From: an uncultured Planctomycetia bacterium
GTDB taxonomy: Bacteria > Omnitrophota > Gorgyraeia > 2-02-FULL-51-18
NCBI GenBank assembly: GCA_964543965.1
Contig: CAZJAX010000001.1
Location: forward strand, 1-44,007
Length of the DNA stretch: 44,007 nucleotides
Direction of reading: 5' to 3'
Below the pieces are notes generated by a model. It made no database searches. It was not told where the DNA came from and worked only from the letters and a program-made list of their open reading frames with translations. Numbering within the stretch: the first letter of the stretch is position 1; each line of letters opens with the position of its first letter. Shown here in pieces: positions 11,079-28,422 of this stretch. The translations under genes were made by a program, and so were the position numbers.

Positions 11079-11931
11079 ATAGCCAGAGCTGAGCCGGGAA
11101 CAGGAAGAAAAAGATCGTCGGCACGTGCATCGTGGCGACCAAAAGCGCGTGAAAAATAAAGCCGTCTATCACTGCGATGCGCCGCGTGCGCCGGGCGAAG
11201 AGCAGGAAGGGCATCGCGATCTCCCACACGACTACCCCGATCCCAAGACAATAGCAGACCGCCGCATGGCCGGCGAAAAAATCTCTGAACGGGAACGGCT
11301 TGATCACGCCTTCCGCAGAACCGTTCATCAGATAGTACAGCGGGTTGCCGCTGATCCAGTTGCCGCCCGCCGTGCATTTGACCAGGCCTGTATAAAAAAA
11401 TGTGAAAGCGATCTGTATCTGCAGGAGCCTTTGGATAAAAAATGGACGGCGTTCTCTGGCTTCCCGGATACGGGGGAAGATGCGGCTGTCGACCGAGTAG
11501 TAGTCGCCCGGATAACCCGTCACGCATAAAAGAGAAAGCGTCACGAGCAGGATATCGAAGGAAAGCGTACCGATGTGCAGCGAATTGACGGCATAGAAGT
11601 AATAACAGCATAGTGTCATGACGATGCAGGAGGCCTGTGTCAGAAATCCTGCGGCGAAAAACAGCAGAGACAGGGTAAACGCGCCCATCATGATGTTGAC
11701 GAAACTGTCGGGACTCTTCGACGCCCATTCGATCGCCGCCGGAGTGAAAAATGAGAAATTCTTTCGTGCGTAGGCGGTGGAGTAGTAATTGTCTGCCGGA
11801 TGCAGAAAAGTCGGGAGGATGTGCGCTCCGGTCGTGAATGCGGCGAAGAATCGGAATACCGAAAGCGCCTTTGAAGGCCGCTCTTTTAGGAATAAGCGGT
11901 TCCAGACTCTGGCTATGCCTGAGGTCAGCAT
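11047..11931 (-). CDS. Polytopic membrane protein, HTTM-domain-like (vitamin K-dependent gamma-carboxylase / SdpB-like family)
   Basis: 294 aa with about 7-8 TM helices. The start (ALSVFRFFAAFTTGAHIL) and overall pattern resemble HTTM proteins. The assignment is by recollection only. Confidence 0.5.
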   Translation of the reverse strand: MLTSGIARVWNRLFLKERPSKALSVFRFFAAFTTGAHILPTFLHPADNYYSTAYARKNFSFFTPAAIEWASKSPDSFVNIMMGAFTLSLLFFAAGFLTQASCIVMTLCCYYFYAVNSLHIGTLSFDILLVTLSLLCVTGYPGDYYSVDSRIFPRIREARERRPFFIQRLLQIQIAFTFFYTGLVKCTAGGNWISGNPLYYLMNGSAEGVIKPFPFRDFFAGHAAVCYCLGIGVVVWEIAMPFLLFARRTRRIAVIDGFIFHALLVATMHVPTIFFFLFPAQLWLFIPLRKTSSR

Positions 11932-12374
11932 CGGTAGGCGAGATCCCGGCGGACTTCGTTTTTTGCTTCCGGGCGGCAGGAATAGACGGCCTGTGCGACC
12001 GCAAACGAATCATACGATGGGAATTTACGCCGAAGGTAGCGGCAGAAATCCTCATCGGGTCCCCCGCCCAGCGTGCTGATCAGGATATTGCGGCGGATAT
12101 TATCGTAGCCGAGCCATCGCGTCTCAAAGATGCGGTGGGGGTCGATCAGCTCTATCCGGTCTCCGGTCTGCCCGTAAACCTCCGCCCGCACCTCGACATC
12201 GTCCACCCGGAAGAACATGATCCATCCCGCCGGCGGGTAGAGAAATTTGATCTTCGGAAGGCGCTTTCCGAAGAGAGGATCGAGGTAGTGATACCGGATC
12301 GATTCGTATTGAAATACGAGGAGCCAAAGGAGGGTAAAGGCGCTGATGAGGGTGTTTCGCAGATGTTTGGGCAT
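11925..12374 (-). CDS. Hypothetical membrane-anchored protein, translationally coupled to the HTTM gene
   Basis: 149 aa with a single N-terminal TM (LISAFTLLWLLVF). Its stop overlaps the HTTM start by 7 nt. No family recognised. Confidence 0.55.
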   Translation of the reverse strand: MPKHLRNTLISAFTLLWLLVFQYESIRYHYLDPLFGKRLPKIKFLYPPAGWIMFFRVDDVEVRAEVYGQTGDRIELIDPHRIFETRWLGYDNIRRNILISTLGGGPDEDFCRYLRRKFPSYDSFAVAQAVYSCRPEAKNEVRRDLAYRC

Positions 12375-12446
12375 CGGCAGTCCTGGCGTCCTCCGGAGTG
12401 GTATACTACTATCCTATAGCAGGCTGAGCTTCTTTTCATCCAAAAA

Positions 12447-13154
12447 ATGGCCGCATCGCGGGCGTTTTTCATAAGGAAAAACATGATCTATCACTGCGGA
12501 CAGAAAAAAGCGCTGTGGTTCCGGAACCGCGCGGCTGAGTTCCTGCAAGCCTATACTTCGAACGAACCTTCAAGTCCGCGCAATGCTTTTCTCGATATTC
12601 ACGGAAAGATCATCGCCCTCGCGGACCAGTCGCTGGTGTCCCCCGAGGAAGTGCTCGTGGTGATCGAAAAGCCCTTTGAAGAGCGTCTGCGCACCCATTT
12701 GGCGCGCTACCAGCCTCTTTACGGCACGGAGATCACCGCGGCCAACCACAACCTATATTTCGACTTAGAAGCCGCGTATTTACCGGCATCGGACGAGATC
12801 GCGATCCCCCAGAAAAAAGGACAGCTTATTTTAAGCCCCTATCTTCTGCCGTCTTCCGTGTCTGAAGAGGAGTTTCTTCTTTTCCGTGTAAAAAACGGAC
12901 TGCCGCTGCAGGGCATCGATTTTGACCGCGATCTTCTTCTGAGTATAGGCGACGAAGATTTTGTCAGCTACAAAAAGGGCTGTTATCTGGGTCAGGAGAT
13001 CATCGCGCGCATCCATTTCCGGGGTAAACCGCCGAAAAAGCTCGTGGTTCGTTCTCAGGACTCATGCACCCCGGAGGATCGTCCGCGGCTTACTTCGGCA
13101 GTTCGAAACCCTCAAGATGGCAAGATCTATGGTTTTATTATGGTCCAGAATTAA
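12447..13154 (+). CDS. YgfZ/GcvT-like folate-binding protein
   Basis: KKGCYLGQEIIARIHFRG matches the K-G-C-Y-x-G-Q-E signature of the YgfZ/CAF17 family. The true start may be ATG 12483 (MIYHCG). Confidence 0.6.
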   Translation: MAASRAFFIRKNMIYHCGQKKALWFRNRAAEFLQAYTSNEPSSPRNAFLDIHGKIIALADQSLVSPEEVLVVIEKPFEERLRTHLARYQPLYGTEITAANHNLYFDLEAAYLPASDEIAIPQKKGQLILSPYLLPSSVSEEEFLLFRVKNGLPLQGIDFDRDLLLSIGDEDFVSYKKGCYLGQEIIARIHFRGKPPKKLVVRSQDSCTPEDRPRLTSAVRNPQDGKIYGFIMVQN

Positions 13155-13270
13155 CATAAGTCATTTTATATTAGATACTTACATAGATCATTATAGGATT
13201 AATCCTTTGGGCAGCTATTGACGTCTAACATAGCGACAGGAACCCATAAGCTTCCAAAAAGGAGATTGCG

Positions 13271-13882
13271 ATGAAATTGATTCTGCACAAATCTTTGATC
13301 GGTCTGATAGTTTTTTCATTTGCTGCCAGCGACGTGCGCGCGGAAAAAGTAATGGACAAAGCCGAAGTGAAGGCACAGCTTGAAGCGATCGAAAGGCTGA
13401 AAACAGAGGATCCCGAAAAATATAAGGAAGTGATGAGGATCCGCAAGGAAAAATTAAAGGAGAAGATGGATGAGCTTAAGGTCAAGGATCCTGCAAAATA
13501 CAAGGAACTTCAGCAGCAGATGTCCGCTAAACGCCGCGAAGCGCTGGACAAGCTGAAGAAAGAGGAACCGACTAAGTATCGCCAGGTGATGGAATGGCAA
13601 ACACGCGAGTTGGAGCGCATCAAGTCGGAGGAGCCAGCTCGATATAAAGAGATCCTCAAGAAAAATCCGAAGCTCGCGGAAAATATCAAAAAACGCGAAG
13701 AGCTGGAGAAGCTTAAGGTGGAGAACCCCAAGAAATTCCAAGAACTCGCTGACGCCAAACTGCGTGAGCTGCAGGTCATGAGAGAGAAAGAGCCCGAGAA
13801 ATACAAGCAGCTGCTGGAAAACGTGCCGGGTCTCGAGCGCGGTATCCAGAACGCTGAGAACGCAAAAAAGAGCGGAAGATAA
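13271..13882 (+). CDS. Secreted K/E-rich helical repeat protein (six '[DEN]-P-x-[KR]-[YF]-[KRQ]-[EQ]-[VIL]' units)
   Basis: Signal peptide ...FAASDVRA. The repeats are EDPEKYKEVM, KDPAKYKELQ, EEPTKYRQVM, EEPARYKEIL, ENPKKFQELA and KEPEKYKQLL, spaced 23-30 aa apart. AAAGGAG ribosome-binding site. Confidence 0.75.
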   Translation: MKLILHKSLIGLIVFSFAASDVRAEKVMDKAEVKAQLEAIERLKTEDPEKYKEVMRIRKEKLKEKMDELKVKDPAKYKELQQQMSAKRREALDKLKKEEPTKYRQVMEWQTRELERIKSEEPARYKEILKKNPKLAENIKKREELEKLKVENPKKFQELADAKLRELQVMREKEPEKYKQLLENVPGLERGIQNAENAKKSGR

Positions 13883-13902: not shown

Positions 13903-14499
13903 ATAAAAGAAGCTCTTTCTAATGAAGCAGAGATCATCGAGCAAGCCCGCTCCGGCGGACTGAAAGCTTTCGGCGCGCTCGTGGAGATGCACCAGGAGCG
14001 CGCCGTCGCCCGCGCCTTTGCTTTGACCGGCAATTGGGAGGATGCGCGCGATCTGGCACAGGAAGCGTTCATCCGTGCTTATGAGAATCTGGACGGCTTC
14101 AAGGCGGAAAGCCGTTTCTACACCTGGTATTACAGGATCCTGTCAAACGTTTGTAAAGATCACCTGAGAAAAAAGAAAGTTCGAGCCGCCATTTCGTTTT
14201 TTACGGGCCGCGGCGATGAAGGGGAAGGGACAGCGGAGGAGAACATCGTCGACCGGTCCAAAAATGCCAAGGAGGCGCTTTTGGATAGGGAGCTCGGCCA
14301 AAATCTGTATAAAGCGGTATCGAGTCTCCCGTTTCGACAGAAGAATGCGTTTGTGCTTAGGTATATGGAGGACATGAGTCTCGAAGAGATCGGAGAGACC
14401 ATGCAGATTTCGACCGGCGCGGTAAAGGCTCACCTGTGGCAAGCGGTCAAGAAAATGAAAGATTTTCTCGGCTCATATGCCGGTACGGAGGGATGCTGA
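13903..14499 (+). CDS. ECF-type RNA polymerase sigma-70 family factor; start probably non-canonical
   Basis: Region 2 (DLAQEAFIRAYENLDGF, FYTWYYRILSN) and region 4 (FVLRYMEDMSLEEIGETMQISTGAVKAHL) are present. The conserved N-terminal helix EAEIIEQARSGGLKAFGALVE is encoded upstream of the first GTG (13981). The frame is open from 13894. The only plausible initiators are ATC 13900 and ATA 13903, downstream of AGGAG (13892-13896). Confidence 0.8.
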   Translation: MKEALSNEAEIIEQARSGGLKAFGALVEMHQERAVARAFALTGNWEDARDLAQEAFIRAYENLDGFKAESRFYTWYYRILSNVCKDHLRKKKVRAAISFFTGRGDEGEGTAEENIVDRSKNAKEALLDRELGQNLYKAVSSLPFRQKNAFVLRYMEDMSLEEIGETMQISTGAVKAHLWQAVKKMKDFLGSYAGTEGC

Positions 14500-14501: not shown

Positions 14502-14897
14502 ATGGATGATAAAATTTTCGATAAAATGGACCGGATGTTTTCTGCCCGTATGAAAAATGAAGCTCCGCACGTTCCCGGGGAGATACTGAATGGTTTCAGT
14601 CATTCCGTGGCTGAAAGGATACGTGAGCGGGAGAATCAGAAGCTGCAGTCGGCGCGCCAAAGTCCAGTGTTTCGGCCCCGCGTACTTGTGCCCGTATTCG
14701 CGGCGGTCATGCTTTTTTTCACGGTTATATTCCGGGTTCCTTCATTTTCCACAGACACCGGCATGAGAGCGATGGTGGCTCAGAGCGCTTTAGAAATTAG
14801 CGAGGAAATCACGGCTTTGTCAGCGATGGGAGCCTGGGGCGACGAGGACGACAACATGCTCGTCCCCGCCGAAATCGTTTTTGAGGATCTAGCTTAG
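14502..14897 (+). CDS. Putative anti-sigma factor (single-pass membrane protein)
   Basis: Starts 2 nt after the sigma stop (an alternative ATG at 14493 overlaps it). One TM (VLVPVFAAVMLFFTVIF). Acidic C-terminus. The position is typical of an ECF anti-sigma factor. Confidence 0.55.
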   Translation: MDDKIFDKMDRMFSARMKNEAPHVPGEILNGFSHSVAERIRERENQKLQSARQSPVFRPRVLVPVFAAVMLFFTVIFRVPSFSTDTGMRAMVAQSALEISEEITALSAMGAWGDEDDNMLVPAEIVFEDLA

Positions 14898-15517
14898 GCC
14901 GAAGTCTTGATCTGCGATGCTTGCGCCATGGCCTGCATTTCACCTTCGAGCGCAGGACGGATGACCGGCAGAGCTGAGCCGTCTTTCGCCAGATCGACCG
15001 CCTGACCCTTCTTGAGCTGGACCACTTTCCCTGATTTTTTATCCAATACGTCCACTTTCCCTTCACGGACCGCAAAGGTCGTCACAGGATTGGTCGGGGT
15101 GGCAGGCTGGACGCGGCCCCAGAACTGAGTGCCTCGCACCGTCGCGACAGCGGTCGGCGTTTCGACCTTGAACGTAGATCCCATATGAAGTTTCTTAAGG
15201 TTCATGATCGCGTTGCCGTTCTTGATCTGTACGTGCATGTCTGTTCTTGAAGCATTCACGATGGCAAATTCGCTGGTGGGCAATACGCGGCATCCGGCCA
15301 TTCCGTTGACGGAAAGATCGAGGGTGCTATTAGCCTCAGAAGTCACGACGATATCGCCGGTCCGCAGTTTCATACCCGGCTGCGCGCTCAGCTTCTCGAA
15401 ACCGCGCTGGATGTGAGGGTTTCCGACCATCGACTTCACGACCACTTGGTCTTCGGCGAATGACGGTGTCTGCAAGAGCGCTACGAATGACAGAACCAGC
15501 CAGAAAATCTTTTTCAT
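14894..15517 (-). CDS. Secreted FecR-domain protein
   Basis: Signal peptide MKKIFWLVLSFVALLQTPSFA. KLRTGDIVVTSEANSTLDL ... VETPTAVATVRGTQFW resembles the FecR (PF04773-like) beta-rich domain. Confidence 0.65.
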   Translation of the reverse strand: MKKIFWLVLSFVALLQTPSFAEDQVVVKSMVGNPHIQRGFEKLSAQPGMKLRTGDIVVTSEANSTLDLSVNGMAGCRVLPTSEFAIVNASRTDMHVQIKNGNAIMNLKKLHMGSTFKVETPTAVATVRGTQFWGRVQPATPTNPVTTFAVREGKVDVLDKKSGKVVQLKKGQAVDLAKDGSALPVIRPALEGEMQAMAQASQIKTSA

Positions 15518-15699: not shown

Positions 15700-18600
15700 A
15701 TGAAACCTAACCCTATGATCCGCCCAACGGCTTTGATGCTGCTTTTGAGCGTATTTCTGAGCGAGCTGTCTTTTGCGGCTCCCTCTGAAAAGCCGGCCGC
15801 CGCCGTGTCATTGCGGCCGCTGGAAAGGCTCGTCCGCGACCCTCAAGAATTCCAAGCCCCTCTGGATTTCTGCACTTTGAAAGAAGTCTCCAAGGGTTCC
15901 TCGGATAAGCTGATCATCCATATCCAGGACGCTCACGCCAATCTTTCCGGACAGCAGAATCTCGCGCGCACTTTAGAGAGCATTATCCGGCAGTACGGGA
16001 TCTCGCTTGTGCTTGTGGAAGGCGGCTCACCTGCGGAAGGCTCTCTCGAACCTCTTAAAAAAATAGGACCTGCGGGATCCGCCGAGCGGGCCGCCAAGAG
16101 ACTGCTGGCCGAAGGAAGGCTCTCCGGCGAAGAATACCTGCAGCTGACTTCGCGTCACCGCATGACGCTGCGCGGCGTCGAAAACATGACGCTTTACCGG
16201 AACAGCGTAGAAAGCTATGCGCGGCTGGCGGAAAAGAGGCAAAAGGCGCTTGATTATCTCAAAACCGTACGTTTCGCGGTCGGTAAGCTCAAGGCAAAGT
16301 TTTATCCTGCAAGCCTTTTGGATTACGAAAATAGAAAAAAGGCCGAGGGCGGTTCCGGGATCGGCCGCTTGGTAGAATTTGCCGATGAGAACAGCATAGA
16401 TCTCGGAGAATTTCAGAACATTGCGGAACTAAGACCGCTTTTAGCCTCGGAAAAGACCATCGATTTCTCTCTAGCCAACCTCGAACAGGCGGCGCTTCTG
16501 GATCAGCTGCACCGGCGCGGCGCAGGAGAGGATATCCGCGGACAGCTTGAAAAGTTCAATCAGGCAAAAAATTCAAAAGTCTCTCAGTATACCCTCTTTC
16601 GAAATATCTTAAATATCGCCGATAAGAAGGGTGTGTCTCTCGCGGGTTATCCGAATCTCCTGAAATACGGCGCATATCTTAAGAAGTTTCAGGAGATCGA
16701 CCTCGATCTGCTTTTAGAGGAAAGCGAAAATGCCGAAGATCTCGTATACCGCTCAGCGCTCCGCTCACAGGATGCGCTCATGATCCGCGCCATCGACCGC
16801 TACACAGCGCTCCTGGAAACTGCTTACCGTATCCAGATGAGCAGTAAGGATTTCAATTTTTTTCGTGCCAACGAACCCGATTTTTCCACGGCAGGATATC
16901 TGGCATTCATCAACCGTAAGCTCGCTGAGCAGGATTATTTTTCGGACCTTCTCGTTTATGACCCGTGCATCGAGGAAGGCGAAAAGGCTCTGGCCGATTT
17001 TTATGCGTCGGTCGACCGAAGAGATGCCGCCTTCCTTGAGAATGCAAAAGGGATCCTGAAAGAAGAGGGCCGGAGCGCGGCCGTGCTGATCACGGGCGGC
17101 TATCACAGCCAGCACCTAAAAAAACTTTTCAGGGATAATGATTATTCTTACATTGTCCTCGCGCCCATCGTTACATCCGAGACCAACCAGCAAAAATACG
17201 AAGATCTGCTTCTCGGAGAAAAAAAGGGATCGAAAAGGATCGAAGCGGGTGAAAGCGATATCATGAGTTTCCGCCATAACGATGGTGTCCGAACTCTGCG
17301 CGCCGCTTCCAGCGGACCGCGATGGATCTCCCGCTATGCGGGAGTTGCCGGTGTCCCCGCATCGGACGCTGCCGTACGCCGCGTACGCTCGGATTTCGCC
17401 AAGAGAGTGTGGGTTACTGAGGGAAGTCCGTTCCGAACCGTTACCAAAGACAGGCGCGCGGTCTCCGCTTCTAAGCCCGAGGATGCCGGGAAAGGAGATC
17501 TATTCAAGGAGAGTGATGGTCATTTCCCCGATCTGGAAAGGCCGGTAATATTTTACGGCAGCGGTCCGGAGTCAAACCCTCTCTTTAGATTCACCGGCAT
17601 TAAGTCCGGCTATCCGGATAAATTTTTAACCAACGGATTTTTTAGTCAGAACGGTCCGCTTTTCGCACAATGGCGTTTCGAAACCCTGCGATCGAGTTTT
17701 GCAAAAATGGGTGCGCGATTTGCCGCCGAACAGACTGCGCGCCCCGCCGCCGGCTGGCCCCTGGCCGCCAGCCCGGAAACGGTCGGAGCTGTGAGGATGA
17801 TCCTTGAAACCCCTGCAGTGGCCGAAGGTTTGAAAAAAAAGGAGTTTAACTACCCGCTTTATCAGCGGGAAATAGAAAAGTTTAAAAATTATCATAACGT
17901 AGACATCGAACAAACGGCTGCGCTGGTTGCGATCCTGACGCTCTATATCGCAAGAATAGGGAATGACCCTAACAATTATCAAGCCGTCATCGGAGAATTG
18001 GGTAAATCAGAAGGTCCTTTAAAGGTTCTTTTTTTGCGGGCTCACGGTTTTGCGTTCGGTGCGTGGGCTCCATTCATGAAACCCAATATCTATACGAATC
18101 AATATGAGGGCCAGGAAGTCCGTATCCTGCAGACAGCCGCATCTGCGATATCAGCCGATCTTGCTCAGGCATCCCTGCCGGCCGCGTATCTGCAGTCCTG
18201 GGCTCCGGGCAAGACCATGCGGGATAGGGATAAGGTTCTTATTTCGCTCAATGATTGGATTTTTCCTGCGGGAGTCATCATAAGCAACAGAGAGATTAAC
18301 CGCGGATTTTATAGAGACGCAGAGCCAAGAGTGCGTGTTGCGGCGAACTCGGCCGACGTCACTGTTAAAAAGCGGGGGAGTCTGACCGTCCGGAAGATCA
18401 AAGTATACCTGGGTTACGGCGCTCCCGAACCGCCAGGCCACTTGGCGCTTCATCTGCTAGGAACCAACATCATTGCTTCCAGAATGGAAAATCTGATCAA
18501 TCACGCGCGAGATATGCACAGATTAACTTATGCGCCCATACCCGATCTGTCCCTTTACCGTATGCGGTATCCATCCGTTGCAGATGAGCTGATGCGCTTC

Positions 18601-21600
18601 GATCAGGTGCATAGAAAAGCGGTGTCGAGGGAGCTCTCCGCGCTGTCTCAGGATCAGACGACACAGCTGCTGATAGAGATGCAGGACGACCACGAGGAAT
18701 ATCACGTTTATGCGGTGCAGCTCGGCATCGAGCAGAAGCTGCTTCATGATAAAGATTCGGAGCTTTTTCCTCAGCTCGGTGAGCTGGCAAAGGGCAGAGC
18801 GCCTTACTTAACGCTGGCAGGACTCAGCATTGTCAGCGCTTACGGCGCTCTTAAACCAGAAGGCACGGTCATCGAAAACAGGCGTTCTTTAGATTCGATA
18901 TACAACGGCGCTCTGCGTTTGGGTTATTTAAAAGACGGCGCTAAACCTATATTCTCAGAAAGAGAGATCAACCCAGGCACAGTGATCCTTATGAACGCGG
19001 AGCAGCTCGATGCGCTTATTTCTTTATCCAAGGAAGAACTCAAAGAGCTTGCCACCAAGCTATTAAAAGAATTGTTCGGTATCGATGCGCTGCCGGACGA
19101 CTCGGAAGTGATCGCCAGGCCTTTACAGGAGATGATCTCAGCTCCAGGACCCGTCTATGCAGTGACGCCTTCGCTGCAGGGAAATCAACCCATACCTTTG
19201 GACGAAAAGCAGGGTTCGCGTCTGGCGGAAGACGATAGCGCATTTATGAAGTCGCTGCGCGGCCTGCTGGCCGACGGAAACTTTATCGCGGCGGTTCTCC
19301 GCAGCGGGTCGGAAAGAAAGCGGTTCCTGAGCTGGGTAAGCCAGAACGCCGAACGGCAAGGAACCTGGAGCGATATCGTCGAGATCGGCCGCCTGCGGAG
19401 TTTACTCGGAAAAGAGGATGAACCCCGCGCCGCGCTTTTGGACGATATCCGGACGACCGCGGCGATGCACACTTTTGCGGTGTTTACATCGCAAGGCGGC
19501 GCCCGTTATGAAATGAGAACCAGCGACAATTTCGACCGCGGTGAGCGAAGGCTTCTCTATCCGATGATCGAACAGTTCATCGCCTCGCATCCAGCTTCGG
19601 TCCGCATAGAGGATATCGGCATCTCGACAGGCGCAAAACCGGTCCAGCTGGCACGATTTCTGGATTCGAAGTCCCTGGCATCGAAGGTCTTTTTTACCGG
19701 AACCGACTATCTGACGGAGCCGCGTCTTGTAAGGGTCGGCGCAGGTCGTGAGACGGTGGAGGGACTTTTCAACGCATCAGGACAGCTGGTCTGGACGCGT
19801 TTTTGGTCGCCCGAGCACCGGCATTTCATTTCCCGCCGTGTCAAAACACCTCAAGACAGCAAATTTACATCGGCCGAGCAGCTTAAGCTCGAATACGGCG
19901 CCGGAAGATACGTGATCCTCCCGCGTTATCTCCCGGCCTATCTCGAAGAATGCCGCCGCCTGCTTTCTGCCGCGGATTTCATCGAGGAAGATGTAACAAA
20001 AGCCTCGCCGGACAGAACTGCGGATCTGGTGCTCGTAAACAATGTCTATATCCATCTGGATAGCGGCGAGAGGCGTGCCGCTCTGCTGAGTATTTTCAAT
20101 CGGTTGAATCCGGCCGGCGGACGAGCCGTTTTTATGGAGTCCGGCAGGCGCAGTATCCGCAAAGGCGGCGTGGAAAGCGGTGTCGCCGTGTATGAAATAT
20201 ATGAACGCAAGGGGTCGACCGTGACCCGCATCAAGTCTCACTCCAGGGCGGAAGAACTGGCTGAACTTATCAGCAAAGACATGCTGCTGTCCCATCATCG
20301 TGACAGCTGGGCGCCTCGCGCGGATCTCGCGGGCCGCGACGCGGCGTTCGATGCCGAATTGGACGAGCTGCTTCCCCGAGGATGGAACCTTCCTGGAAGG
20401 GACATCATGCCTGAAGTCATCGAGCTCGACGATCCAGAGATCAGGGAAATATCGCCTGAAGAAGTAAAGTTGAAGACCCGCGCCGACCAGGCGACGGAGA
20501 TGACCCGCGAGACCATCGCGCGGGAAGGCACCCGCTCATGGACCAAGAGCTGGATCGAAACGATCGAGGGCTGGATCGAGATATATGAAAGCCGGCCCGT
20601 TGCAAGTCCGAATACCGCAGAATATCTGGCGCTGTTCCAGGACCGGCTAGCGGTCCTGCGTGCCCATAGGACGGAGCTTGAAAGACGCGCTGCCCAAATA
20701 CCTGCTGACGAACCCTCTCTCTTTATTGCGCTCAACACGAGTCCCGGGGGACGCCAGCTGACGGCCGAAGAACTCAACAAGATCCTTGGGCTGTTCAGAG
20801 ACAGTCCGGTGATCGCTGACACCGGATCGATAAAGCTTCGTATGAGTTTTGAGGGGATCCCTCCGGTTACCGACGCTCAGCTTGATCTGATCAGCGCGTT
20901 TCTGACCGCGCAAAAGAACGGCGCCCGCTTGGCGGAGCGTTTCATGACGCTCGATTCGGGGAGCCCCGAGAACCAGAAGTACATTCCTACTATCATCAGT
21001 TTCGTCAGCCAGTTTCTGAAGGTCGCCGAAAAGGACAAGGACGACCGAACCGGAGAATTGATCTATCACCTGCATGTCACCGACAGTGAAGCGGCGGATC
21101 TGAGCGGGATGATGGCCAAGATCAAAAATATGAACACGGTCGACGCCGGCATCTATCTGATGATGCAGGCATACCGCAGTCTTTATTTCGACGTGCTTAA
21201 AGGTAAAGACGACATGATGAATACCGAAACACGAGCGGTGCTCGAAGATTCTCCTGGAGCCTACGGCACCGACCCCGAGCGTCCCGTGCTTTTCGACCTG
21301 ACCCCCGAGCGTCAGATCGTCGCCGTGTACCTGCCTGTCGAGGGCAACACGTTCGTGAAGCTCGAGATCGTACGCGGAACCGGGTCTGACGAGCGCACAA
21401 TGGACGCGGAGACCACCAAACTTTCTCCTCTGTTAAACGCTAAAGGCCAGCCGATGCATGTGTTCCGAGCGCGCAGCTCCATCGTAAACGGCGTTACGCT
21501 TGGCGCGCATGAGACAGAAGGTGCTCGGTTCGCGAAGGCCGACCTGGAAGCCGAAAGATTTTTGAATGACCCGGCCAATTCTTACGTGAGAAGCCTTTAT

Positions 21601-24285
21601 ACCGAATATAAATCCAGAGGCGTTCCAGGGATAGACAATTGGGTGTATCGGGCGGCGGCCGCGGCAACGGAAGGACAGCGTCACGAAGTCGTTGGAGAGC
21701 TGATCTCGGCGAAGCGCATCGAGAAGGAATATCCGGATGCAGAGCTCATCGGGATCGGTCTCGGGATAGGCGCTTATGAAGCCGATATCGTGTTTGAGGT
21801 CAAGGGAACTAAGCCCCACCTCTTGGTCATCGAGTCCAAATACGACCGCACGCCTCATTTCCGCTCTACTTTCGAACGAACGACCAACTATCAGATGAAG
21901 CCTTTGGCCGAAAAACTCATCATGGTCGAAGACCTTCTGGGTCTTCCCGTGCGCTACGCCGTGATGGGCGCGGGCCCGAAGATCCTGATCTTGGAATCCG
22001 GCCGCGATTTTGATCGCTTTGAGAGCGCCGGCAGAACTGATGTCAATTTTACCTATGAAGATCAGCAGGCCGGCCGTCGTCCCGGAAAAACAGTGCTGAG
22101 GACCATCCCCGTCGATCTTATCCTTCTGAACGTCGATGCCAAGAAGCTGCCGGATGCTGAAACACCCCAAGTGCGCATCTATGATTCGACTTCCATCCGC
22201 GCGGACTTCTTCAGAACCATCGGAGGCCATTTCATACCTTCGGCGGGACAGCGCCGTCTAGTGCGTCCTGAGATCCTTCCGGCCGTTTTGGAAGAGGCGT
22301 TCCAGAGAGAGATCGAGATCGAAAGGGAATGGACGAGAATAGAGCCGTATTTGGAGCGTCTGGTGCGTTCCGTACGCCAGCCCGGCGCGGTCAAAGGCCT
22401 CGTCGAAGGCGACATCGAGCTTTTCCGGGAAGGCGCACGGTTTTTCCTCACCGAAGGTCTCAGGCGCGGCCGCACCTTCGATGACCTGCGGCACGTGATC
22501 AGCGACAGACTGAGCGCTAAAGGCGGCGTAAAGAACATATATGAACCCTTCAAAAAAGCCGGAGAGAGAAACCGTCCCGCTGAAGGCGCGCGGCTCGCTG
22601 CGGAGGACAAAGAGCTTTTTGTGAAGAAACTTGAGTTTACTCCCGGACTGCATACGCTGCTTATCGATAAAAGGCGCGAGAGCGTGCGCCAGGCGATCAG
22701 AGAGGCAAAATTGAAGTGGGCTAAAGAACAGCATTCGGCGCAGCCCGATCCGGTTCTTCTGGACCAGCTGAAAAATGTGGAAGTGAACGATCCTGAGTTG
22801 GGCAACATCAAGATCGGCATCAGCGGCGAAGAGTCTCTCTTGAACGAACGGCTGGATTTCCTCCTGCAGGAACTCTTGATGAACGCATTCGACGCGTACG
22901 CGCGCACCGGAGGGCGAGGCGGCGAGATCGAGCTGCGCGTCGCCGAGGCCGGCGGCGAGATCCGCATCGAGATATCCGACTCTGGAATAGGCGTCTCAAA
23001 CATCACGGACAAACCGGGAGAATTTAAAGTCACCGCCAATCCTTCCGTCAAAGACGCTTATTTGACCGGCGGAGCGGGCGCAGGCCTCCTTTGGTCTAAG
23101 GTGGTCGCTCAGGCCCGCAACGGTGATCTCACCGTTTTTTCTCCCGGCCGCGGAGATTTTAAAACGACGGTCAGGATGTCTTTTCCCAAAGACGAGATCA
23201 GCGCGGATTATATTTCTTCCGCTGCGAGGCTCGCGTCGGCTCAAGACCCGCAGCGGCTGCGCCGGATATATGCCATCGACGAGCCCTTACCGGACGAAGC
23301 GGTCTCAAAGTTTTCCGATGCGGCGCCGATCATGGATCTCATCGCGCTGATCGCGGCTCATCATGAAAATTCAAATCGGGGAAATATTCCCGTTCAGGCC
23401 GCTTCGACGGCGTTTGCCGGCCTCGAAATACTGCCTGAGACTGCCGGCGGAATTCCCGTGCGCCTCGCAGACCCGCGAGCCGCCGGAAAATATCTTGATA
23501 CGGTCGTCGTGACGAGGGAAGCGGCGCGCCTGGCGGCCTCACGCCTGGCCGCTTCCAGGGCTCTCGATGTCAAACTGCCCGAGCTTTGGCATGAAAACCA
23601 GCCTGCGCGTGAAGCGGCTGCCGATTACAAGAGCCGCGACAGCCGGACAGCTCAGCTTCTGCGCCAGCTCGTCAAAAATCTGAAAGCCACCCAGCATGTG
23701 ATCCTATTCATGAGCGTCGAAGGCCAGGATGAAGAACTTTTAAAGCAGGAGATCGCCGAGCTGAGATCCGAACTCGAAGCGCTGAATCAGAAAAGACAGA
23801 CGGGACGTCTTGAGGTCTCCATCCGCCTGGCCGACGCGGCCGGCACCCAGATCGAGGGTGCTTTGTGGCAGACCGGGGGTTTCGACGAAACGAAAGCAGA
23901 GAAGAAGGCTTTCTCGGGAGCTCTTCGCCAATCTCTCATCGACCGTGCCGTCAAGACGCAGTCCGCTTATCTGCCTGCCGATGAGGCTCATTACGACCGT
24001 GAGAAAGGGTATTACAACGCCATCCCATACAAACCCGATATGCGCGCGGCTATCGCGGCCGTCGTGGATGAAGAGCTCGCTGCCCGCATGCTGAGCGTCC
24101 TGACGGGTCAGGATATGAGCCTGCCGGGCAATATGACGCTGATCCGAGAACCTCACAGATACGCCGGACCCGTCACCACGGATACTTACCGCGCCAAACA
24201 GCTTATCGTGCGCGCCTTGGCCCGCATTTCCGATGAACTTCGCCGGGATTATCTCTCTCTCAGAGCCTCTGCGATCGCGGCATAA
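15700..24285 (+). CDS. Giant multi-module protein (about 2,861 aa) with an N-terminal signal/anchor sequence; function unknown
   Basis: One uninterrupted ORF. The track starts at TTG 15631, but ATG 15700 yields MKPNPMIRPTALMLLLSVFLSELSFAAP (signal-like). It contains Tiki/ChaN-like, SAM-MTase-like, PD-(D/E)xK-like and GHKL-like motif sets and a recurring G-[AS]-R-[LF]-A motif. All antisense ORFs within it are shadows. Confidence 0.85.
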   Translation: MKPNPMIRPTALMLLLSVFLSELSFAAPSEKPAAAVSLRPLERLVRDPQEFQAPLDFCTLKEVSKGSSDKLIIHIQDAHANLSGQQNLARTLESIIRQYGISLVLVEGGSPAEGSLEPLKKIGPAGSAERAAKRLLAEGRLSGEEYLQLTSRHRMTLRGVENMTLYRNSVESYARLAEKRQKALDYLKTVRFAVGKLKAKFYPASLLDYENRKKAEGGSGIGRLVEFADENSIDLGEFQNIAELRPLLASEKTIDFSLANLEQAALLDQLHRRGAGEDIRGQLEKFNQAKNSKVSQYTLFRNILNIADKKGVSLAGYPNLLKYGAYLKKFQEIDLDLLLEESENAEDLVYRSALRSQDALMIRAIDRYTALLETAYRIQMSSKDFNFFRANEPDFSTAGYLAFINRKLAEQDYFSDLLVYDPCIEEGEKALADFYASVDRRDAAFLENAKGILKEEGRSAAVLITGGYHSQHLKKLFRDNDYSYIVLAPIVTSETNQQKYEDLLLGEKKGSKRIEAGESDIMSFRHNDGVRTLRAASSGPRWISRYAGVAGVPASDAAVRRVRSDFAKRVWVTEGSPFRTVTKDRRAVSASKPEDAGKGDLFKESDGHFPDLERPVIFYGSGPESNPLFRFTGIKSGYPDKFLTNGFFSQNGPLFAQWRFETLRSSFAKMGARFAAEQTARPAAGWPLAASPETVGAVRMILETPAVAEGLKKKEFNYPLYQREIEKFKNYHNVDIEQTAALVAILTLYIARIGNDPNNYQAVIGELGKSEGPLKVLFLRAHGFAFGAWAPFMKPNIYTNQYEGQEVRILQTAASAISADLAQASLPAAYLQSWAPGKTMRDRDKVLISLNDWIFPAGVIISNREINRGFYRDAEPRVRVAANSADVTVKKRGSLTVRKIKVYLGYGAPEPPGHLALHLLGTNIIASRMENLINHARDMHRLTYAPIPDLSLYRMRYPSVADELMRFDQVHRKAVSRELSALSQDQTTQLLIEMQDDHEEYHVYAVQLGIEQKLLHDKDSELFPQLGELAKGRAPYLTLAGLSIVSAYGALKPEGTVIENRRSLDSIYNGALRLGYLKDGAKPIFSEREINPGTVILMNAEQLDALISLSKEELKELATKLLKELFGIDALPDDSEVIARPLQEMISAPGPVYAVTPSLQGNQPIPLDEKQGSRLAEDDSAFMKSLRGLLADGNFIAAVLRSGSERKRFLSWVSQNAERQGTWSDIVEIGRLRSLLGKEDEPRAALLDDIRTTAAMHTFAVFTSQGGARYEMRTSDNFDRGERRLLYPMIEQFIASHPASVRIEDIGISTGAKPVQLARFLDSKSLASKVFFTGTDYLTEPRLVRVGAGRETVEGLFNASGQLVWTRFWSPEHRHFISRRVKTPQDSKFTSAEQLKLEYGAGRYVILPRYLPAYLEECRRLLSAADFIEEDVTKASPDRTADLVLVNNVYIHLDSGERRAALLSIFNRLNPAGGRAVFMESGRRSIRKGGVESGVAVYEIYERKGSTVTRIKSHSRAEELAELISKDMLLSHHRDSWAPRADLAGRDAAFDAELDELLPRGWNLPGRDIMPEVIELDDPEIREISPEEVKLKTRADQATEMTRETIAREGTRSWTKSWIETIEGWIEIYESRPVASPNTAEYLALFQDRLAVLRAHRTELERRAAQIPADEPSLFIALNTSPGGRQLTAEELNKILGLFRDSPVIADTGSIKLRMSFEGIPPVTDAQLDLISAFLTAQKNGARLAERFMTLDSGSPENQKYIPTIISFVSQFLKVAEKDKDDRTGELIYHLHVTDSEAADLSGMMAKIKNMNTVDAGIYLMMQAYRSLYFDVLKGKDDMMNTETRAVLEDSPGAYGTDPERPVLFDLTPERQIVAVYLPVEGNTFVKLEIVRGTGSDERTMDAETTKLSPLLNAKGQPMHVFRARSSIVNGVTLGAHETEGARFAKADLEAERFLNDPANSYVRSLYTEYKSRGVPGIDNWVYRAAAAATEGQRHEVVGELISAKRIEKEYPDAELIGIGLGIGAYEADIVFEVKGTKPHLLVIESKYDRTPHFRSTFERTTNYQMKPLAEKLIMVEDLLGLPVRYAVMGAGPKILILESGRDFDRFESAGRTDVNFTYEDQQAGRRPGKTVLRTIPVDLILLNVDAKKLPDAETPQVRIYDSTSIRADFFRTIGGHFIPSAGQRRLVRPEILPAVLEEAFQREIEIEREWTRIEPYLERLVRSVRQPGAVKGLVEGDIELFREGARFFLTEGLRRGRTFDDLRHVISDRLSAKGGVKNIYEPFKKAGERNRPAEGARLAAEDKELFVKKLEFTPGLHTLLIDKRRESVRQAIREAKLKWAKEQHSAQPDPVLLDQLKNVEVNDPELGNIKIGISGEESLLNERLDFLLQELLMNAFDAYARTGGRGGEIELRVAEAGGEIRIEISDSGIGVSNITDKPGEFKVTANPSVKDAYLTGGAGAGLLWSKVVAQARNGDLTVFSPGRGDFKTTVRMSFPKDEISADYISSAARLASAQDPQRLRRIYAIDEPLPDEAVSKFSDAAPIMDLIALIAAHHENSNRGNIPVQAASTAFAGLEILPETAGGIPVRLADPRAAGKYLDTVVVTREAARLAASRLAASRALDVKLPELWHENQPAREAAADYKSRDSRTAQLLRQLVKNLKATQHVILFMSVEGQDEELLKQEIAELRSELEALNQKRQTGRLEVSIRLADAAGTQIEGALWQTGGFDETKAEKKAFSGALRQSLIDRAVKTQSAYLPADEAHYDREKGYYNAIPYKPDMRAAIAAVVDEELAARMLSVLTGQDMSLPGNMTLIREPHRYAGPVTTDTYRAKQLIVRALARISDELRRDYLSLRASAIAA

Positions 24286-24372: not shown

Positions 24373-24446
24373 GAATGATTAATTATGCTTATTGAGACCC
24401 TCTAGAGCCTTAGGTAACCTTGATAGTAAGGTATCCAGGAGGGTTC

Positions 24447-26120
24447 ATGCAGCGAAGGTTGGAAGATCCAAAGCCCAAAAAAAACCAGATCCACATTCTC
24501 ATCATCGAAGACGACAACGAGTTAAGAACGTTTCTATCGTCTGAGCTCACCTTGCGCGGTTATCACACCCAGACCGCAGCCGACGGCCTGGAGGCCATGG
24601 AAAAAGTCCGCCGGCATCCCTTTAATCTGGTCTTAAGCGACTTGCGCATGCCGCGCATGGACGGTATGGCCGTGCTTAAAGCTTTGAAAGAGATCGATCC
24701 TCAGATCGACGTGATCCTCATGAGCGGGCAGGGCGATATCGAGATCGCCGTGAAAGCGATCAAGCTCGGCGCCTTCGATTTTCTGGAAAAGCCCGTTTCG
24801 ATGGAAAAGCTTCTGCTTTTGATCGACAAGGCCCTCGAAAAAAGCGAGATCCGTATGCTGATGGCGCTCTACAGCGCCAGCCGCATGCTCTTTTCGTCTT
24901 CGCGTCTCGAGGAGCTGCTTTCGATGACGATGAATATGCTGTATTCGGTGTTCAAAGCCGATGAAGGGTCGTTCATGATTTATGAAGAAGAGCGCTTGCG
25001 GATTCTTACCAGCCGCGGAATTCCCGAAGAGATCGTCAAAACAGCCTCTGTCAAAATGGGTGAGCGCGTATCCGGCTACGCTCTACAGCATAAAAAACCG
25101 CTGCTTCTGATCGAGGGCCGCGAAAAATATTCGGAACTGGGAAAGATCGAAACCCGTACTCACATCCAGTCGTCGATGGTCATCCCGGTCTACTGCAACG
25201 ACACTCCGGTCGGCGTGCTCAATCTGAGCCGCACCGTTCACCGGGAGAATTTCACTTACAACGATCTGCGCAACGCCACGATCTTCGCTTCCCAGCTCGG
25301 ACAGACCGTGCACAACTCGCGGCTCGGCCACAGCCTTGACGAGAAAATGAAAGAGCTTAAAGAGGCCTATCGATTGCTCGAAGAGCGTAAGGCACTCCTG
25401 GAAGAAAAGGAAAAACTCGCCAAAGTCGGCTGCATGATCGCCGGCATGGTGCATGAGGTCAACAACCCTCTGACGGCCGTTCTTGGCCACGCCGATCTGC
25501 TTCTTTCACAGGATGACCTGGCGCCGGAAGTCCGCGAGACGCTGCAGATCATTTTGCGCCAGGCGATGGCCTGCCGCGACCTCGTGCAGGACCTTCTGCT
25601 GTATTCAAGACGGCGCAAGCCCGAGCTGCGCGACGTCGATCTGCCGGGGCTTATTCATGACGTCCTGAATTGCGCTTCTCCCGAGATCCTGCGCAGCGGC
25701 GTGCGGGTGAGATTTTGCTATCCCAAAAACTTTCAGACCGTGCAGGCCGATCCTCAGCAGCTGGCGCAGGTGTTCCTAAACCTCGTGAAAAATTCCTGTC
25801 AGGCGCTCGAGACGCGTCCCGGCAAACGCCATTTGGCCATCAAGATCCGGCCAAACGCCGATGCAGCTTCCGCCGATATCCTTGTGATGGACAACGGCTC
25901 CGGCATCCCCGCAGATCTATCCGAGAAGATATTCGATCCGTTTTTCACGACGAAACCGTCCGGTAAAGGGACGGGACTCGGCCTGAGCATGGTCCGTGAG
26001 ATCGTGCGCGAGCACGGCGGTCGCATCGACGTCCGGCCGTCGCATCTTCCGGGCGCGGTTTTCTCGATCACACTTCCTTATACCCAGACGACCCTCTCCG
26101 GCCTGCCGTCCCGAGCCTAG
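24447..26120 (+). CDS. Hybrid two-component protein: receiver (REC), GAF and histidine kinase (HisKA + HATPase_c)
   Basis: REC: ILIIEDD...LVLSDLRMPRMDG...K. The middle region is GAF-like. H-box MVHEVNNPLTAV, N-box NLVKNSCQA, G1 DNGSGIP, G2 GKGTGLGLS. AGGAGG lies 4-5 nt before ATG 24447. Confidence 0.88.
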   Translation: MQRRLEDPKPKKNQIHILIIEDDNELRTFLSSELTLRGYHTQTAADGLEAMEKVRRHPFNLVLSDLRMPRMDGMAVLKALKEIDPQIDVILMSGQGDIEIAVKAIKLGAFDFLEKPVSMEKLLLLIDKALEKSEIRMLMALYSASRMLFSSSRLEELLSMTMNMLYSVFKADEGSFMIYEEERLRILTSRGIPEEIVKTASVKMGERVSGYALQHKKPLLLIEGREKYSELGKIETRTHIQSSMVIPVYCNDTPVGVLNLSRTVHRENFTYNDLRNATIFASQLGQTVHNSRLGHSLDEKMKELKEAYRLLEERKALLEEKEKLAKVGCMIAGMVHEVNNPLTAVLGHADLLLSQDDLAPEVRETLQIILRQAMACRDLVQDLLLYSRRRKPELRDVDLPGLIHDVLNCASPEILRSGVRVRFCYPKNFQTVQADPQQLAQVFLNLVKNSCQALETRPGKRHLAIKIRPNADAASADILVMDNGSGIPADLSEKIFDPFFTTKPSGKGTGLGLSMVREIVREHGGRIDVRPSHLPGAVFSITLPYTQTTLSGLPSRA

Positions 26121-27606: not shown

Positions 27607-27635
27607 TTGATTTTGGCTCCTAAATGGCGTACTAT
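27607..27635 (+). promoter_or_regulatory. Sigma-70-like promoter TTGATT-17-TACTAT, 7 nt upstream of ATG 27643 (leaderless-type)
   Basis: The hexamers and the exact 17-nt spacer can be read directly. There is no Shine-Dalgarno sequence between the -10 and the ATG. Confidence 0.45.
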
Positions 27636-27642
27636 GAGATTT

Positions 27643-28413
27643 ATGAACATGAAAACTTCCGTTTTGACTCCCGCCGAAAAGGCCGATTTCTCCCGTGACG
27701 GTTTCCTGGTCGTGCGGGGTTTGTATGATGCCCGCGAAATGGCCGACCTGTCTGCCTGGATCGATGAATTGTCGGCGCGGCCTCCGGCCGTCGGCAAGCT
27801 CATGGCTTATTATGAGGACAGCCGGCTGGAAAGCGGCAAGAAAATCCTGTCCCGCATTGAAAAATTCGTGGATTATCATGACGGCATGAAGTCTCTGGTC
27901 TACGGTGAGAAAATGACCGGGCGGGTTTCTGAGCTTTTGGGCGACCGCGCGCTGCTATTCAAGGAAAAGGTCAATTTCAAGATGCCCGGCGGCGCAGGCT
28001 TCGAAGCGCATCAGGATATCCAGCCCGGATGGGATGCGTATGCGCCGTATTTTATTTCTGTTCTTGTGACGGTGGACCCGAGCACGATCGAGAACGGATG
28101 CCTCGAACTTTCGGCGGGTCATCACAAAAGGGGGCTGATCGGCCAGAAGTGGAAGCCGCTGGCGGGTGACGAGCTCCAGGGCATCGAGTTTACGCCGTAT
28201 CCGATGGAACCGGGGGATGTCGCATTTTTCGACTGTTTCGTACCGCATCAGTCCAAGCCCAACCTTACATCCAAGCGCCGCCGCAACCTGTATCTGACCT
28301 ACAACCGCGCAAGCGACGGAGATTTCCGGGAAAAATATTTCGCCGACAAACGCAAAAGCTTCCCTCCGGACTTCGAACGCGAGCCTGGCAAAGAGTACGT
28401 CTTTCGCGTATGA
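27643..28413 (+). CDS. Phytanoyl-CoA dioxygenase (PhyH) family Fe(II)/2-oxoglutarate dioxygenase
   Basis: MNMKTSVLTPAEKADFSRDGFLVVRGL is a PhyH-type N-terminus. The HQD facial-triad motif (EAHQDIQPGW) and a distal H (FVPHQS) are present. The track ORF begins at 27607, which falls inside the promoter. Confidence 0.75.
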   Translation: MNMKTSVLTPAEKADFSRDGFLVVRGLYDAREMADLSAWIDELSARPPAVGKLMAYYEDSRLESGKKILSRIEKFVDYHDGMKSLVYGEKMTGRVSELLGDRALLFKEKVNFKMPGGAGFEAHQDIQPGWDAYAPYFISVLVTVDPSTIENGCLELSAGHHKRGLIGQKWKPLAGDELQGIEFTPYPMEPGDVAFFDCFVPHQSKPNLTSKRRRNLYLTYNRASDGDFREKYFADKRKSFPPDFEREPGKEYVFRV

Positions 28414-28422
28414 TAGCTCCTC

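Follow-up and report, generated by a model that had tools for sequence, protein, structure and literature searches.

How is a bacterial protein of several thousand residues, built of unrelated enzyme-like modules, divided into its parts? This question is raised by a giant open reading frame (ORF) in a 44,007-nucleotide stretch of contig CAZJAX010000001.1, from an uncultured bacterium of the Omnitrophota. We refer to the whole stretch as the window. A first-pass annotation had described one uninterrupted 8.6-kb ORF, made of unrelated enzyme-like modules and punctuated by a short peptide motif, G[AS]R[LF]A. The ORF is indeed continuous. It runs on the + strand from an ATG at 15700 to a stop codon at 24283-24285, and encodes 2,861 amino acids (aa). 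AAGGA lies 5 nt 5' of the ATG. The database copy of the protein (P0001) has 2,856 aa and begins at the second ATG of the ORF. The description as a chain of unrelated enzyme-like modules was also upheld. We are nearly certain that the motif is a real, protein-level punctuation between modules. The ORF, the motif sites and two look-alikes are listed here.

15700..24285, + strand: giant ORF, 2,861 aa, of the Omnitrophota modular giant family; the N-terminal ~500 aa are common to 120 listed relatives
17710..17724, + strand: punctuation motif 1, GARFA, aa 671, after a disordered linker
19213..19227, + strand: punctuation motif 2, GSRLA, aa 1172
20920..20934, + strand: punctuation motif 3, GARLA, aa 1741, start of module M3; the M3 homologues in P0122 and P0123 begin after GARLA and GTRMA
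21520..21534, + strand: punctuation motif 4, GARFA, aa 1941, end of M3 and start of M4; the M3 homologues end at GARLA and (R)ARMA
22585..22599, + strand: punctuation motif 5, GARLA, aa 2296, ahead of the HATPase_c module
23221..23235, + strand: punctuation motif 6, degenerate AARLA, aa 2508, ahead of the C-terminal domain; AlphaFold2 (AF2) predicted local distance difference test score (pLDDT) 27-42
16216..16230, + strand: YARLA look-alike, aa 173, in the folded N-terminal domain; helix 163-201, pLDDT >90
23521..23556, + strand: AARLAASRLAAS look-alike in a C-terminal domain helix, probably not punctuation

Composition might account for such a recurrence. Leucine, alanine and arginine are abundant in the protein (10.8%, 10.6% and 8.1%, respectively), and two of the copies first listed are coincidental look-alikes. 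Composition shuffles of the query predict 0.044 occurrences of G[AS]R[LF]A, and five are observed. For the looser [GA][AS]R[LF]A, the figures are 0.11 and eight. The motif had been defined after seeing the data. Hence, we ran an unbiased look-elsewhere search over all 5-mers, with each position a residue or one of 13 two-residue classes, alongside 60 shuffles. The top 5-mer of the whole protein was [AG][AS]R[LF]A (p=4e-13). The best p-value among the shuffles was 6e-9, with a median of 5e-6, and none came near that of the query. When the 44-kb window is translated in all six frames, five of the six copies of the motif fall in the giant ORF, and the sixth in a stop-filled frame.

The positions given in the first-pass annotation were all exact. 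Of the copies it listed, those at aa 671, 1172, 1741, 1941, 2296 and 2508 are true punctuation sites. The other two, YARLA-173 and AARLAASRLAAS-2608, are inside folded domains. YARLA belongs to a high-confidence helix of the N-terminal domain, in which Y173 and L176 are invariant across the family. It was rejected as punctuation for its place in this helix (residues 163-201). The second look-alike (aa 2608-2619) also lies in a helix, within the C-terminal domain, and was likewise set aside; it aligns with NRFIA, GRISA and ARFDA of homologues. AARLA at aa 2508 aligns with a column of GARL, GARM, GTRL and GSRL in homologues and falls in a disordered segment. By alignment and model, it is a degenerate yet true punctuation site. 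Two weaker copies that had been proposed, GARY (aa 1267) and GARFF (aa 2245), do not match the family motif. The six sites split the query into seven segments of 670, 501, 569, 200, 355, 212 and 354 aa. Hence, the earlier estimate of about eight modules becomes about seven.

The motif across a family of giant proteins

Our family sample was 120 listed relatives of 1,640-4,971 aa, mostly from Omnitrophota metagenome-assembled genomes (MAGs). In the homology search that listed them, the named relatives are called Candidatus Omnitrophota or Omnitrophica. Residues ~30-540 of the query are kept in all relatives, and residues ~2500-2861 in the closest few. The regions between these conserved ends are unrelated among relatives, and their Pfam repertoire is very diverse. 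It includes kinases, FHA, HEAT, methyltransferases, HATPase, GNAT, HAD, PGM, glycogen synthase, glutamine synthetase, RelA/SpoT, DnaJ, SecA, sigma-70 r4 and TetR/LacI, among others. Separately, precomputed Pfam matches to Intein_splicing (PF14890) in P0016 and P0031 hint at inteins in giant proteins. The shortest listed relative has 1,640 aa. Hence, no stand-alone N-terminal domain was seen among the 120.

Among GTDB species representatives, 554 loci encode the N-terminal domain, often with five to seven or more per MAG. Taxon labels for 80 of these loci are Omnitrophota/Omnitrophica (37), 'uncultured Planctomycetia' (38) and one 'Eisenbacteria' MAG (5). On sequence grounds, the ORF is a member of an Omnitrophota-restricted, multi-paralogue family of modular giants with predicted membrane targeting. 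The family architecture is, in order: a signal or anchor, an alpha/beta N-terminal domain of ~470 aa, a disordered linker, a variable series of unrelated cargo modules that include enzymes, regulators and numerous orphan folds, and a conserved C-terminal tail. At two loci, the N-domain and a long stretch of cargo are encoded by separate ORFs in different frames (L046, 9940-12229 and 12057-21630; L077, 4993-6603 and 6712-15787). Such splits may be frameshifts, either real or assembly errors. At ~10-13 loci (including L017, L020, L034, L045, L046 and L048), NADH dehydrogenase (nuo) genes adjoin the giant, which probably reflects synteny of one orthologue group.

The pattern G[AS]R[LFMIV]A was fixed before the relatives were examined. 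In the non-homologous cargo of 119 relatives, it was observed 325 times against 7.8 expected. The family logo is G (1.0), A (.91) or S, R (1.0), L (.76) or M (.16), and A (1.0). Its flanks are nearly informationless, with weak preferences for S/A at -1, P at -2 and E/D at +1. In an unbiased k-mer enrichment, only GARL and ARLA were both enriched and present in several copies per protein. De novo searches of single proteins placed GARL, GAR.A or G.RLA at the top in most members, with up to 20 copies in one chain (P0091). A further giant, P0121 (5,289 aa), was found independently via cargo homology. It shares the N-terminal domain and the type of C-terminus, and carries 18 copies of the motif.

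Ordinary proteins of the same genomes provide a comparison. In the DNA around the 80 loci, ORFs of at least 1,500 aa total 159,112 aa and hold 224 copies of the motif. The motif is absent from 488 ordinary ORFs of 100-600 aa (139,705 aa). A general proteome feature was rejected on this count of zero in ~140,000 aa of neighbouring ordinary ORFs. We make no claim of depletion in ordinary proteins, since the zero compares with a rough expectation of ~3 and is not significant. A chance effect of composition is ruled out by the shuffles, the look-elsewhere search and replication in the family. It would have to yield 40 to 100 times the expected count, replicated across 119 independent proteins yet nowhere else, and its probability is vanishingly small. 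Hence, the recurrence exceeds composition, as was first proposed. The first-pass annotation had named three outcomes as fatal to its claim: a chance count, motifs in folded cores and non-conservation. None of these was found.

The motif varies by lineage. Six proteins of one clade (P0113-P0119) are without GARLA; in similar surroundings, each of them has R-[S/A]-E-x-R in 5-11 copies. We also find the variants GTRL (P0024, P0027 and P0034), G.RMA, GSRV and GAKLA. When the N-terminal domains are placed on a neighbour-joining tree, members with the same motif type group together in contiguous blocks. That variants follow the N-domain tree is expected for a site co-evolving with its reader. In a third block of the tree we could detect no punctuation, and many proteins there terminate in -SL or -SV. 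DFSFL and PEPEFFLL were tried as a third motif type for this motif-poor clade. Both were rejected, being parts of repeated domains such as glutamine synthetase copies.

The sites lie between modules and not in folded cores, as both Pfam envelopes and AF2 models indicate in support of the original description. In four motif-rich homologues, every motif lies outside the Pfam envelopes, flanking them closely. Thus P0091 reads 4460-GARLA, HAD (4486-4588), 4633-GARLA. P0040 has a motif at 2365, HATPase_c at 2453-2562 and a motif at 2581. The query reads 2296-GARLA, HATPase_c (2383-2497), 2508-AARLA. Within ~10 residues of the motif, mean hydrophobicity is 0.22 in place of 0.33, and linker-like character extends longer upstream than downstream. 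In the AF2 model of aa 1-670, residues 40-505 are confident (pLDDT >85) and residues 509-670, up to motif 1, are disordered (pLDDT 27-43). The model of aa 2490-2861 is disordered around AARLA-2508 (pLDDT 27-42) and folded beyond it. In family members, the first motif is usually at aa 540-660. The last is usually 334-380 aa from the end, ahead of the C-terminal domain where this is detectable. Within linkers, double motifs stand 13-45 aa apart.

Homology between cargo regions gives the same boundaries. An exhaustive HMMER search of 1.84 billion representative proteins with cargo aa 1172-2295 returned three relatives only, all of them giants. Two of the three match aa ~1736-1946, which is exactly module M3. 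This module is flanked by GARLA and GARLA in P0122, and by GTRMA and ARMA in P0123, so that it is motif-flanked in three proteins including the query. Hence, conservation in homologues extends to the same boundaries of one module. A homology block for M4 in P0014 starts at GARMA-788. We then compared all cargo regions with each other and set the resulting blocks against random placement. Block starts lie within 10 aa of a motif in 23% of cases (6% at random) and within 20 aa in 34% (11% at random). Blocks span an internal motif in 18% of cases, against 55% at random. The motif is at the end of the linker, immediately ahead of the next module.

The first-pass annotation had also held that conservation is at the protein level and that the motif is not a DNA repeat. 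Codon usage bears this out: synonymous codons vary and matches are nearly all in frame. The six query sites use, position by position, GGT/GGC/GCT, GCG/TCG/GCC/GCT, CGA/CGT/CGC/CGG/AGG, TTT/CTG/TTG/TTC/CTC and GCC/GCG/GCT. Across 212 family sites every synonymous codon is used, including both arginine families (CGN and AGG) and both leucine families (CTN and TTG). With up to 3 mismatches allowed, the consensus 15-mer GGCGCGCGGCTGGCG occurs 239 times in frame and 36 times in the other five frames. Mismatches cluster at the third base of codons and also, for the Leu/Met codon, at the first base. Because synonymous codons vary, the 15-mer is found nearly only in frame and mismatches fall at third positions, the motif is, as judged from its coding sequence, selected as a peptide.

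The codons are also skewed. Motif sites prefer GGC-GCG-CGG-CTG/TTG-GCG beyond each gene's own usage. Observed against expected counts are 116 and 43 for CGG, 86 and 43 for CTG, and 3 and 32 for AGA. Invariant N-domain residues of the same genes prefer CGC and CTC instead. The motif-coding DNA may share ancestry, or may have been exchanged along with modules.

Conserved ends and variable cargo

The remaining features of the giant protein are as follows.

15700..15780, + strand: signal peptide or signal anchor, aa 1-27; the only hydrophobic segment of the query, with an AF2 helix at 7-26 and conserved N-termini in the family
15817..17214, + strand: conserved N-terminal domain, aa 40-505; AF2 pLDDT >85, alpha/beta core with a helical insert of ~290 aa
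17224..17709, + strand: disordered linker, aa 509-670; AF2 pLDDT 27-43
19933..20142, + strand: methyltransferase-like stretch, aa 1412-1481, in M2; sub-threshold
22846..23190, + strand: GHKL/histidine-kinase-type ATPase, aa 2383-2497, in M5; Pfam HATPase_c
23272..24258, + strand: conserved C-terminal domain, aa 2525-2853; terminal wherever detected (~15 of 120 relatives), with no fold assigned
24223..24282, + strand: conserved C-terminal tail, amphipathic helix; A-[VI]-G-x-[AS]-A-COOH, query ending LSLRASAIAA

Family N-termini (P0002-P0025) have a K/R-rich start and a hydrophobic stretch, followed by F-L-x-Q-E-[LIV]-S-[YF]-[AS]-A-P. The corresponding element of the query is FLSELSFAAP. The N-terminus is too conserved for a generic Sec leader. 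Hence, it may serve as a dedicated signal for targeting, or as a transmembrane helix with a function of its own. Export and topology of the giant are predictions from these features.

The N-terminal domain has a beta-alpha-beta core with strands at 58-64, 71-77, 103-106, 156-159, 460-466 and 483-489 in the AF2 model. Its family-invariant residues are D77 (15928), H79 (15934), E107 (16018), R441 (17020) and H469 (17104), and in the model they sit at beta-strand tips. From H79 to E107 the spacing is 28 residues, as it is from R441 to H469. Active TIKI enzymes have a set of two His and two Glu with a conserved basic residue (PMC6254334). In RRSP, this set is E3900, H3902, E3930, R4001 and H4030, with spacings of 28 (H3902 to E3930) and 29 (R4001 to H4030), and Bcr135 has the pair H85/E113 at a spacing of 28 (PMC6254334). 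In the N-terminal domain the constellation is matched by spacing and strand-tip position, which is not a validated alignment.

Database searches point the same way. The only Pfam match of the domain is ChaN (PF04187, 'Tiki superfamily') at 14.1 bits (E=0.047), where the cut-off is 27.7. Within the family, PF04187 matches 7 of 27 members (best E=0.007) and DUF5694 matches 5 of 27 (best E=7e-4), all sub-threshold. Foldseek against PDB gave nothing at E<=0.001; its top probabilities were EreC (6xcq; probability 0.51, E 0.43) and HopBA1 (5t09; probability 0.33). The erythromycin esterase (Ere) family and HopBA1 are TIKI superfamily proteins (PMC6254334). Searches of PDB sequences with the domain, by phmmer and by profile, returned no TIKI chain. 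A Pfam scan of the core without its insert found nothing; the construct lacked the R441/D442 segment and hence was uninformative. A Tiki/ChaN-like module had been proposed at first inspection. The leads for it are convergent and weak, with all scores below thresholds. Because these leads agree, and because the spacing of invariant residues matches RRSP and Bcr135, sequence and model suggest that the domain is probably a divergent TIKI-type hydrolase.

HATPase_c is the one significant Pfam domain of the query. The match in M5 (E=1.1e-8) scores 35.9 bits against a cut-off of 26.4 and covers profile positions 4-109 of 111. This is above the gathering cut-off and settles the initial guess of a GHKL ATPase in its favour. 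NCBIfam histidine-kinase models match the same stretch weakly, and no HisKA or dimerisation domain was detected beside it. A methyltransferase-like module dependent on S-adenosylmethionine (SAM) had also been proposed. In M2 we find weak matches to CheR (E=0.016) and Methyltransf_25 (E=0.038), and to PADLOC mad2 (E=1e-4, aa 1422-1481); the Pfam scores are below their cut-offs. M4, the candidate for the PD-(D/E)xK-like module also guessed at first inspection, has no Pfam, NCBIfam or PADLOC match. By eye, it contains EAD...VIESK, to be compared with the D...(D/E)xK motif of PD-(D/E)xK enzymes.

The C-terminal domain (~330 aa, AF2 pLDDT 68) gave no significant or protease-like match in Foldseek. 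It was rejected as a protease on this result and for having only one invariant polar residue and no evident catalytic ones. The C-terminal residue is Ala in 92 of 120 relatives, and 81 of 120 end in -AA or -SA. Among the complete giants of the loci, Ala is the last residue in 20 of 22; for ordinary ORFs the share is 11%. Several tails hold a canonical motif copy 9-17 residues from the end. Possible roles of the conserved tail are those of a degron, PDZ ligand or secretion signal.

In the window, the giant gene is surrounded by ordinary chromosomal genes, together with four tRNAs. Directly upstream are an extracytoplasmic function (ECF)-type sigma-70 factor (13981-14499, + strand) and a divergently oriented FecR-domain protein, likely an anti-sigma factor or sensor (14894-15517, - strand). 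A hybrid GAF-histidine kinase with a receiver domain follows the giant gene (24420-26120). Further away, one ORF of 558 aa (9402-11078) is a fusion of a Memo-like and an AMMECR1 domain. Three successive ORFs of 193, 235 and 203 aa (11838-13882) are without a Pfam match. At 27607-30069, a PhyH-family dioxygenase adjoins a phosphoenolpyruvate (PEP) mutase fused to a nucleotidyltransferase domain, a pair that suggests a phosphonate biosynthesis or decoration locus.

What may read the motif

The first-pass annotation had offered three roles for the motif, as a linker, a processing site of a polyprotein or a docking motif. The motif is short, accessible, lineage-specific and placed at module boundaries, as expected of the junctions of a polyprotein. 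Its five sharply conserved residues, set in unconserved flanks, look like a recognition site. By analogy with known polyproteins, the likeliest role of the motif is that of a site of proteolytic processing, although we hold the chances of this to be evenly balanced. It would be recognised by a lineage-specific, co-evolving protease. This enzyme would cut the precursor into separate modules, and the family would be bacterial polyproteins. Closely spaced double motifs would fit redundant cleavage sites. The best candidate for a protease acting in cis would be the N-terminal domain, present in one copy per chain, like the MARTX cysteine protease domain. The TIKI superfamily includes the proven endopeptidases Tiki and RRSP. 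Tiki1 probably cuts Wnt3a at a Leu|Ala bond. We nominate the domain tentatively, and somewhat doubt that it is the protease. The full proposal is that a considerable part of the enzymes and regulators of Omnitrophota is made in the form of membrane-targeted polyproteins, self-cut by an N-terminal TIKI-type peptidase at a lineage-specific pentapeptide. This is possible, and it too must be viewed with some scepticism.

Several observations weigh against the polyprotein reading. Cleavage is inferred, and no split-gene variants starting at the motif were seen. A conserved neighbouring protease gene was not found in the flanks of the giants. The clade with no detectable punctuation keeps the N-terminal domain and its invariant residues. 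Membership of this domain in TIKI is sub-threshold in Pfam, in Foldseek (E>0.1) and in profile searches of PDB sequences, and Asp replaces the first Glu of the two-His, two-Glu set. The TIKI fold also covers esterases, and non-enzymes such as ChaN and PMT. The N-terminus is of an export type, whereas the cargo is mostly of a cytoplasmic type (ATP- and SAM-dependent enzymes and DNA-binding regulators). Finally, the motif-specific preference for CGG and CTG hints at a DNA-level component.

The main rival to cleavage is an uncleaved docking or recognition motif. Its partner might be an N-domain hub or a chaperone, or else a factor for insertion, secretion or scaffolding, and the giant would stay an intact, membrane-tethered multi-enzyme scaffold. 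The sharp five-residue logo, free flanks, accessible linkers and lineage variants fit a binding motif too. A 2026 preprint reads such giants as membrane-anchored multi-enzyme assemblies (10.64898/2026.06.07.730766). An ARLA- or ARMV-like element is often found in the family tail, ~10 aa from the end, and would suit binding or cleavage. However, it is hard to see why docking would need up to 20 identical sites per chain, each at a module start. One hydrolase per chain is better explained by processing, and neighbour genes include no candidate partner. We consider docking rather unlikely. A purely structural role, as a helix cap or rigid joint with no external reader, is highly doubtful. The motif does immediately precede module starts, and AF2 places short helices, tentative and of low confidence, around motifs 1 and 6. 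However, a cap is unlikely to switch to RSExR in a sister clade or to vanish from a third. Furthermore, the motif precedes unrelated folds and is missing from ordinary multi-domain proteins of the same genomes.

Other explanations operate on nucleic acid. The motif might be a by-product of gene building, with the ~15-nt GGCGCGCGGCTGGCG serving as a site of micro-homology or recombination and the peptide merely tolerated in linkers. Homology blocks between giants start at motifs, cargo is extremely variable between paralogues, and motif codons are skewed to one 15-mer, unlike those of invariant N-domain residues. Yet all synonymous codons are used, mismatches fall at third positions and matches are overwhelmingly in frame (239 against 36). 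Substitutions are conservative at the protein level (A/S and L/M/F). A stretch of fifteen degenerate nucleotides is too short to support homologous recombination, and we found no associated recombinase. We regard this origin as quite unlikely. It may coexist with a protein-level function but could not explain protein-level conservation. Internal translation starts at the NTG codon of position 4, by which modules would be made separately from one mRNA, have only a very slight chance of being correct. In the family, 82% of position-4 codons are ATG, CTG or TTG, an enrichment over the gene background. However, only 2 of the 6 query sites have NTG (TTT, CTG, TTG, TTC, CTC and CTC). GGA, which would give a Shine-Dalgarno-like GGAG, is depleted (35 against 51 expected). 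Hence, a reading as ribosome-binding site and start codon is unlikely. Gly, Ala and Arg are kept across synonymous codons, which a ribosome-binding site would not need, and the RSExR clade is without such a codon at a fixed position.

Relation to known systems

Giant proteins are a signature of Omnitrophota and of other ultra-small, host-dependent bacteria. Their function is 'poorly understood' (Seymour et al. 2023). Omnitrophota giants have been published as 'Archaeovorins' and dockerin-type proteins (West-Roberts et al. 2023, bioRxiv 10.1101/2023.11.21.568195) and as long proteins of a 'multi-enzyme metabolic cluster' (bioRxiv 10.64898/2026.06.07.730766). Post-translational cleavage was proposed for them, without known cleavage points (West-Roberts et al. 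2023, 10.1101/2023.11.21.568195). Our family shares with the published giants the phylum, membrane-associated N-termini and cargo such as methyltransferase, HATPase, GNAT, HAD, PGM, radical SAM and HEAT. Omnitrophota origin, an N-terminal hydrophobic segment and diverse cargo Pfams place it with the multi-enzyme long proteins. In contrast, the published proteins are mostly far longer, and the two papers describe no punctuation motif, TIKI-like N-domain or conserved tail. The words motif, cleavage, linker and polyprotein are absent from the 2026 preprint (10.64898/2026.06.07.730766), and no paper in the literature searched ties Omnitrophota to a polyprotein. The first-pass annotation knew of no described system with this punctuation. 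This holds within the literature searched, although the multi-enzyme giant architecture itself was already published. The punctuation code, its clade variants, the TIKI-like N-domain and the conserved tail appear to be undescribed there.

The motif gives a first concrete handle on whether, and where, Omnitrophota giants are processed. It predicts exact product boundaries, supplies a peptide substrate and nominates a candidate protease with named residues. It is also a rule for parsing giants into units for structure prediction and annotation. Should it be a docking site, it would be a new organising principle for multi-enzyme scaffolds.

The TIKI superfamily comprises Tiki1/2, TraB/PrgY, erythromycin esterases, ChaN, RRSP, HopBA1 and PMT C1-C2. 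The N-domain resembles it in having an alpha/beta core with the strand-tip pattern [D/E]-x-H, 28 residues, E, then R, 28-29 residues, H. It differs in that the core is split by the ~290-aa helical insert, the first Glu is Asp and scores are sub-threshold.

Viral polyproteins are cut at protease-specific junctions by potyvirus NIa-Pro, picornavirus 3C and flavivirus NS2B-NS3. The giant is similar in joining unrelated units in one ORF by a short, repeated, lineage-specific junction, with a co-evolving in-chain protease proposed. However, the giants are a cellular bacterial gene family in which module number and order vary freely, and their protease and cleavage are conjectural. If processing is real, a cellular organism would use polyproteins on a large scale. 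If a TIKI peptidase does the cutting, this would be a virus-like expression strategy for the cell's own or exported proteome, with a readable cleavage code.

MARTX toxins reach 5,208 aa and carry modular effectors (PMC5218395). Briefly, conserved termini surround mosaic effectors, and one protease acting in cis cuts the inter-effector linkers after Leu (PMC2780291, PMC5218395). One of the effectors, RRSP, is a TIKI-fold endopeptidase (PMC6254334). In the giant, Pfam searches of the whole protein found no RTX/glycine-rich or hemolysin-type repeats (E<=1) and no Peptidase_C80 cysteine protease domain. The N-terminal signal is Sec-like, in place of a type I secretion architecture. Hence, the giant is not a member of MARTX. 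It differs further in that its candidate protease is N-terminal and of another fold, and in that a strict pentapeptide takes the place of Leu-X as the site. Most of its cargo is made up of housekeeping-type enzymes or of orphan folds, in place of known toxins. The giants occur as five to seven or more paralogues per genome in an uncultivated phylum with no eukaryotic host known, and cleavage is established for MARTX and conjectured for them. The likeness is one of architecture: in both, conserved ends surround a variable mosaic of unrelated modules in a chain of several thousand residues. If the giants are processed, they would form a new modular platform, for delivery or assembly, akin to that of MARTX.

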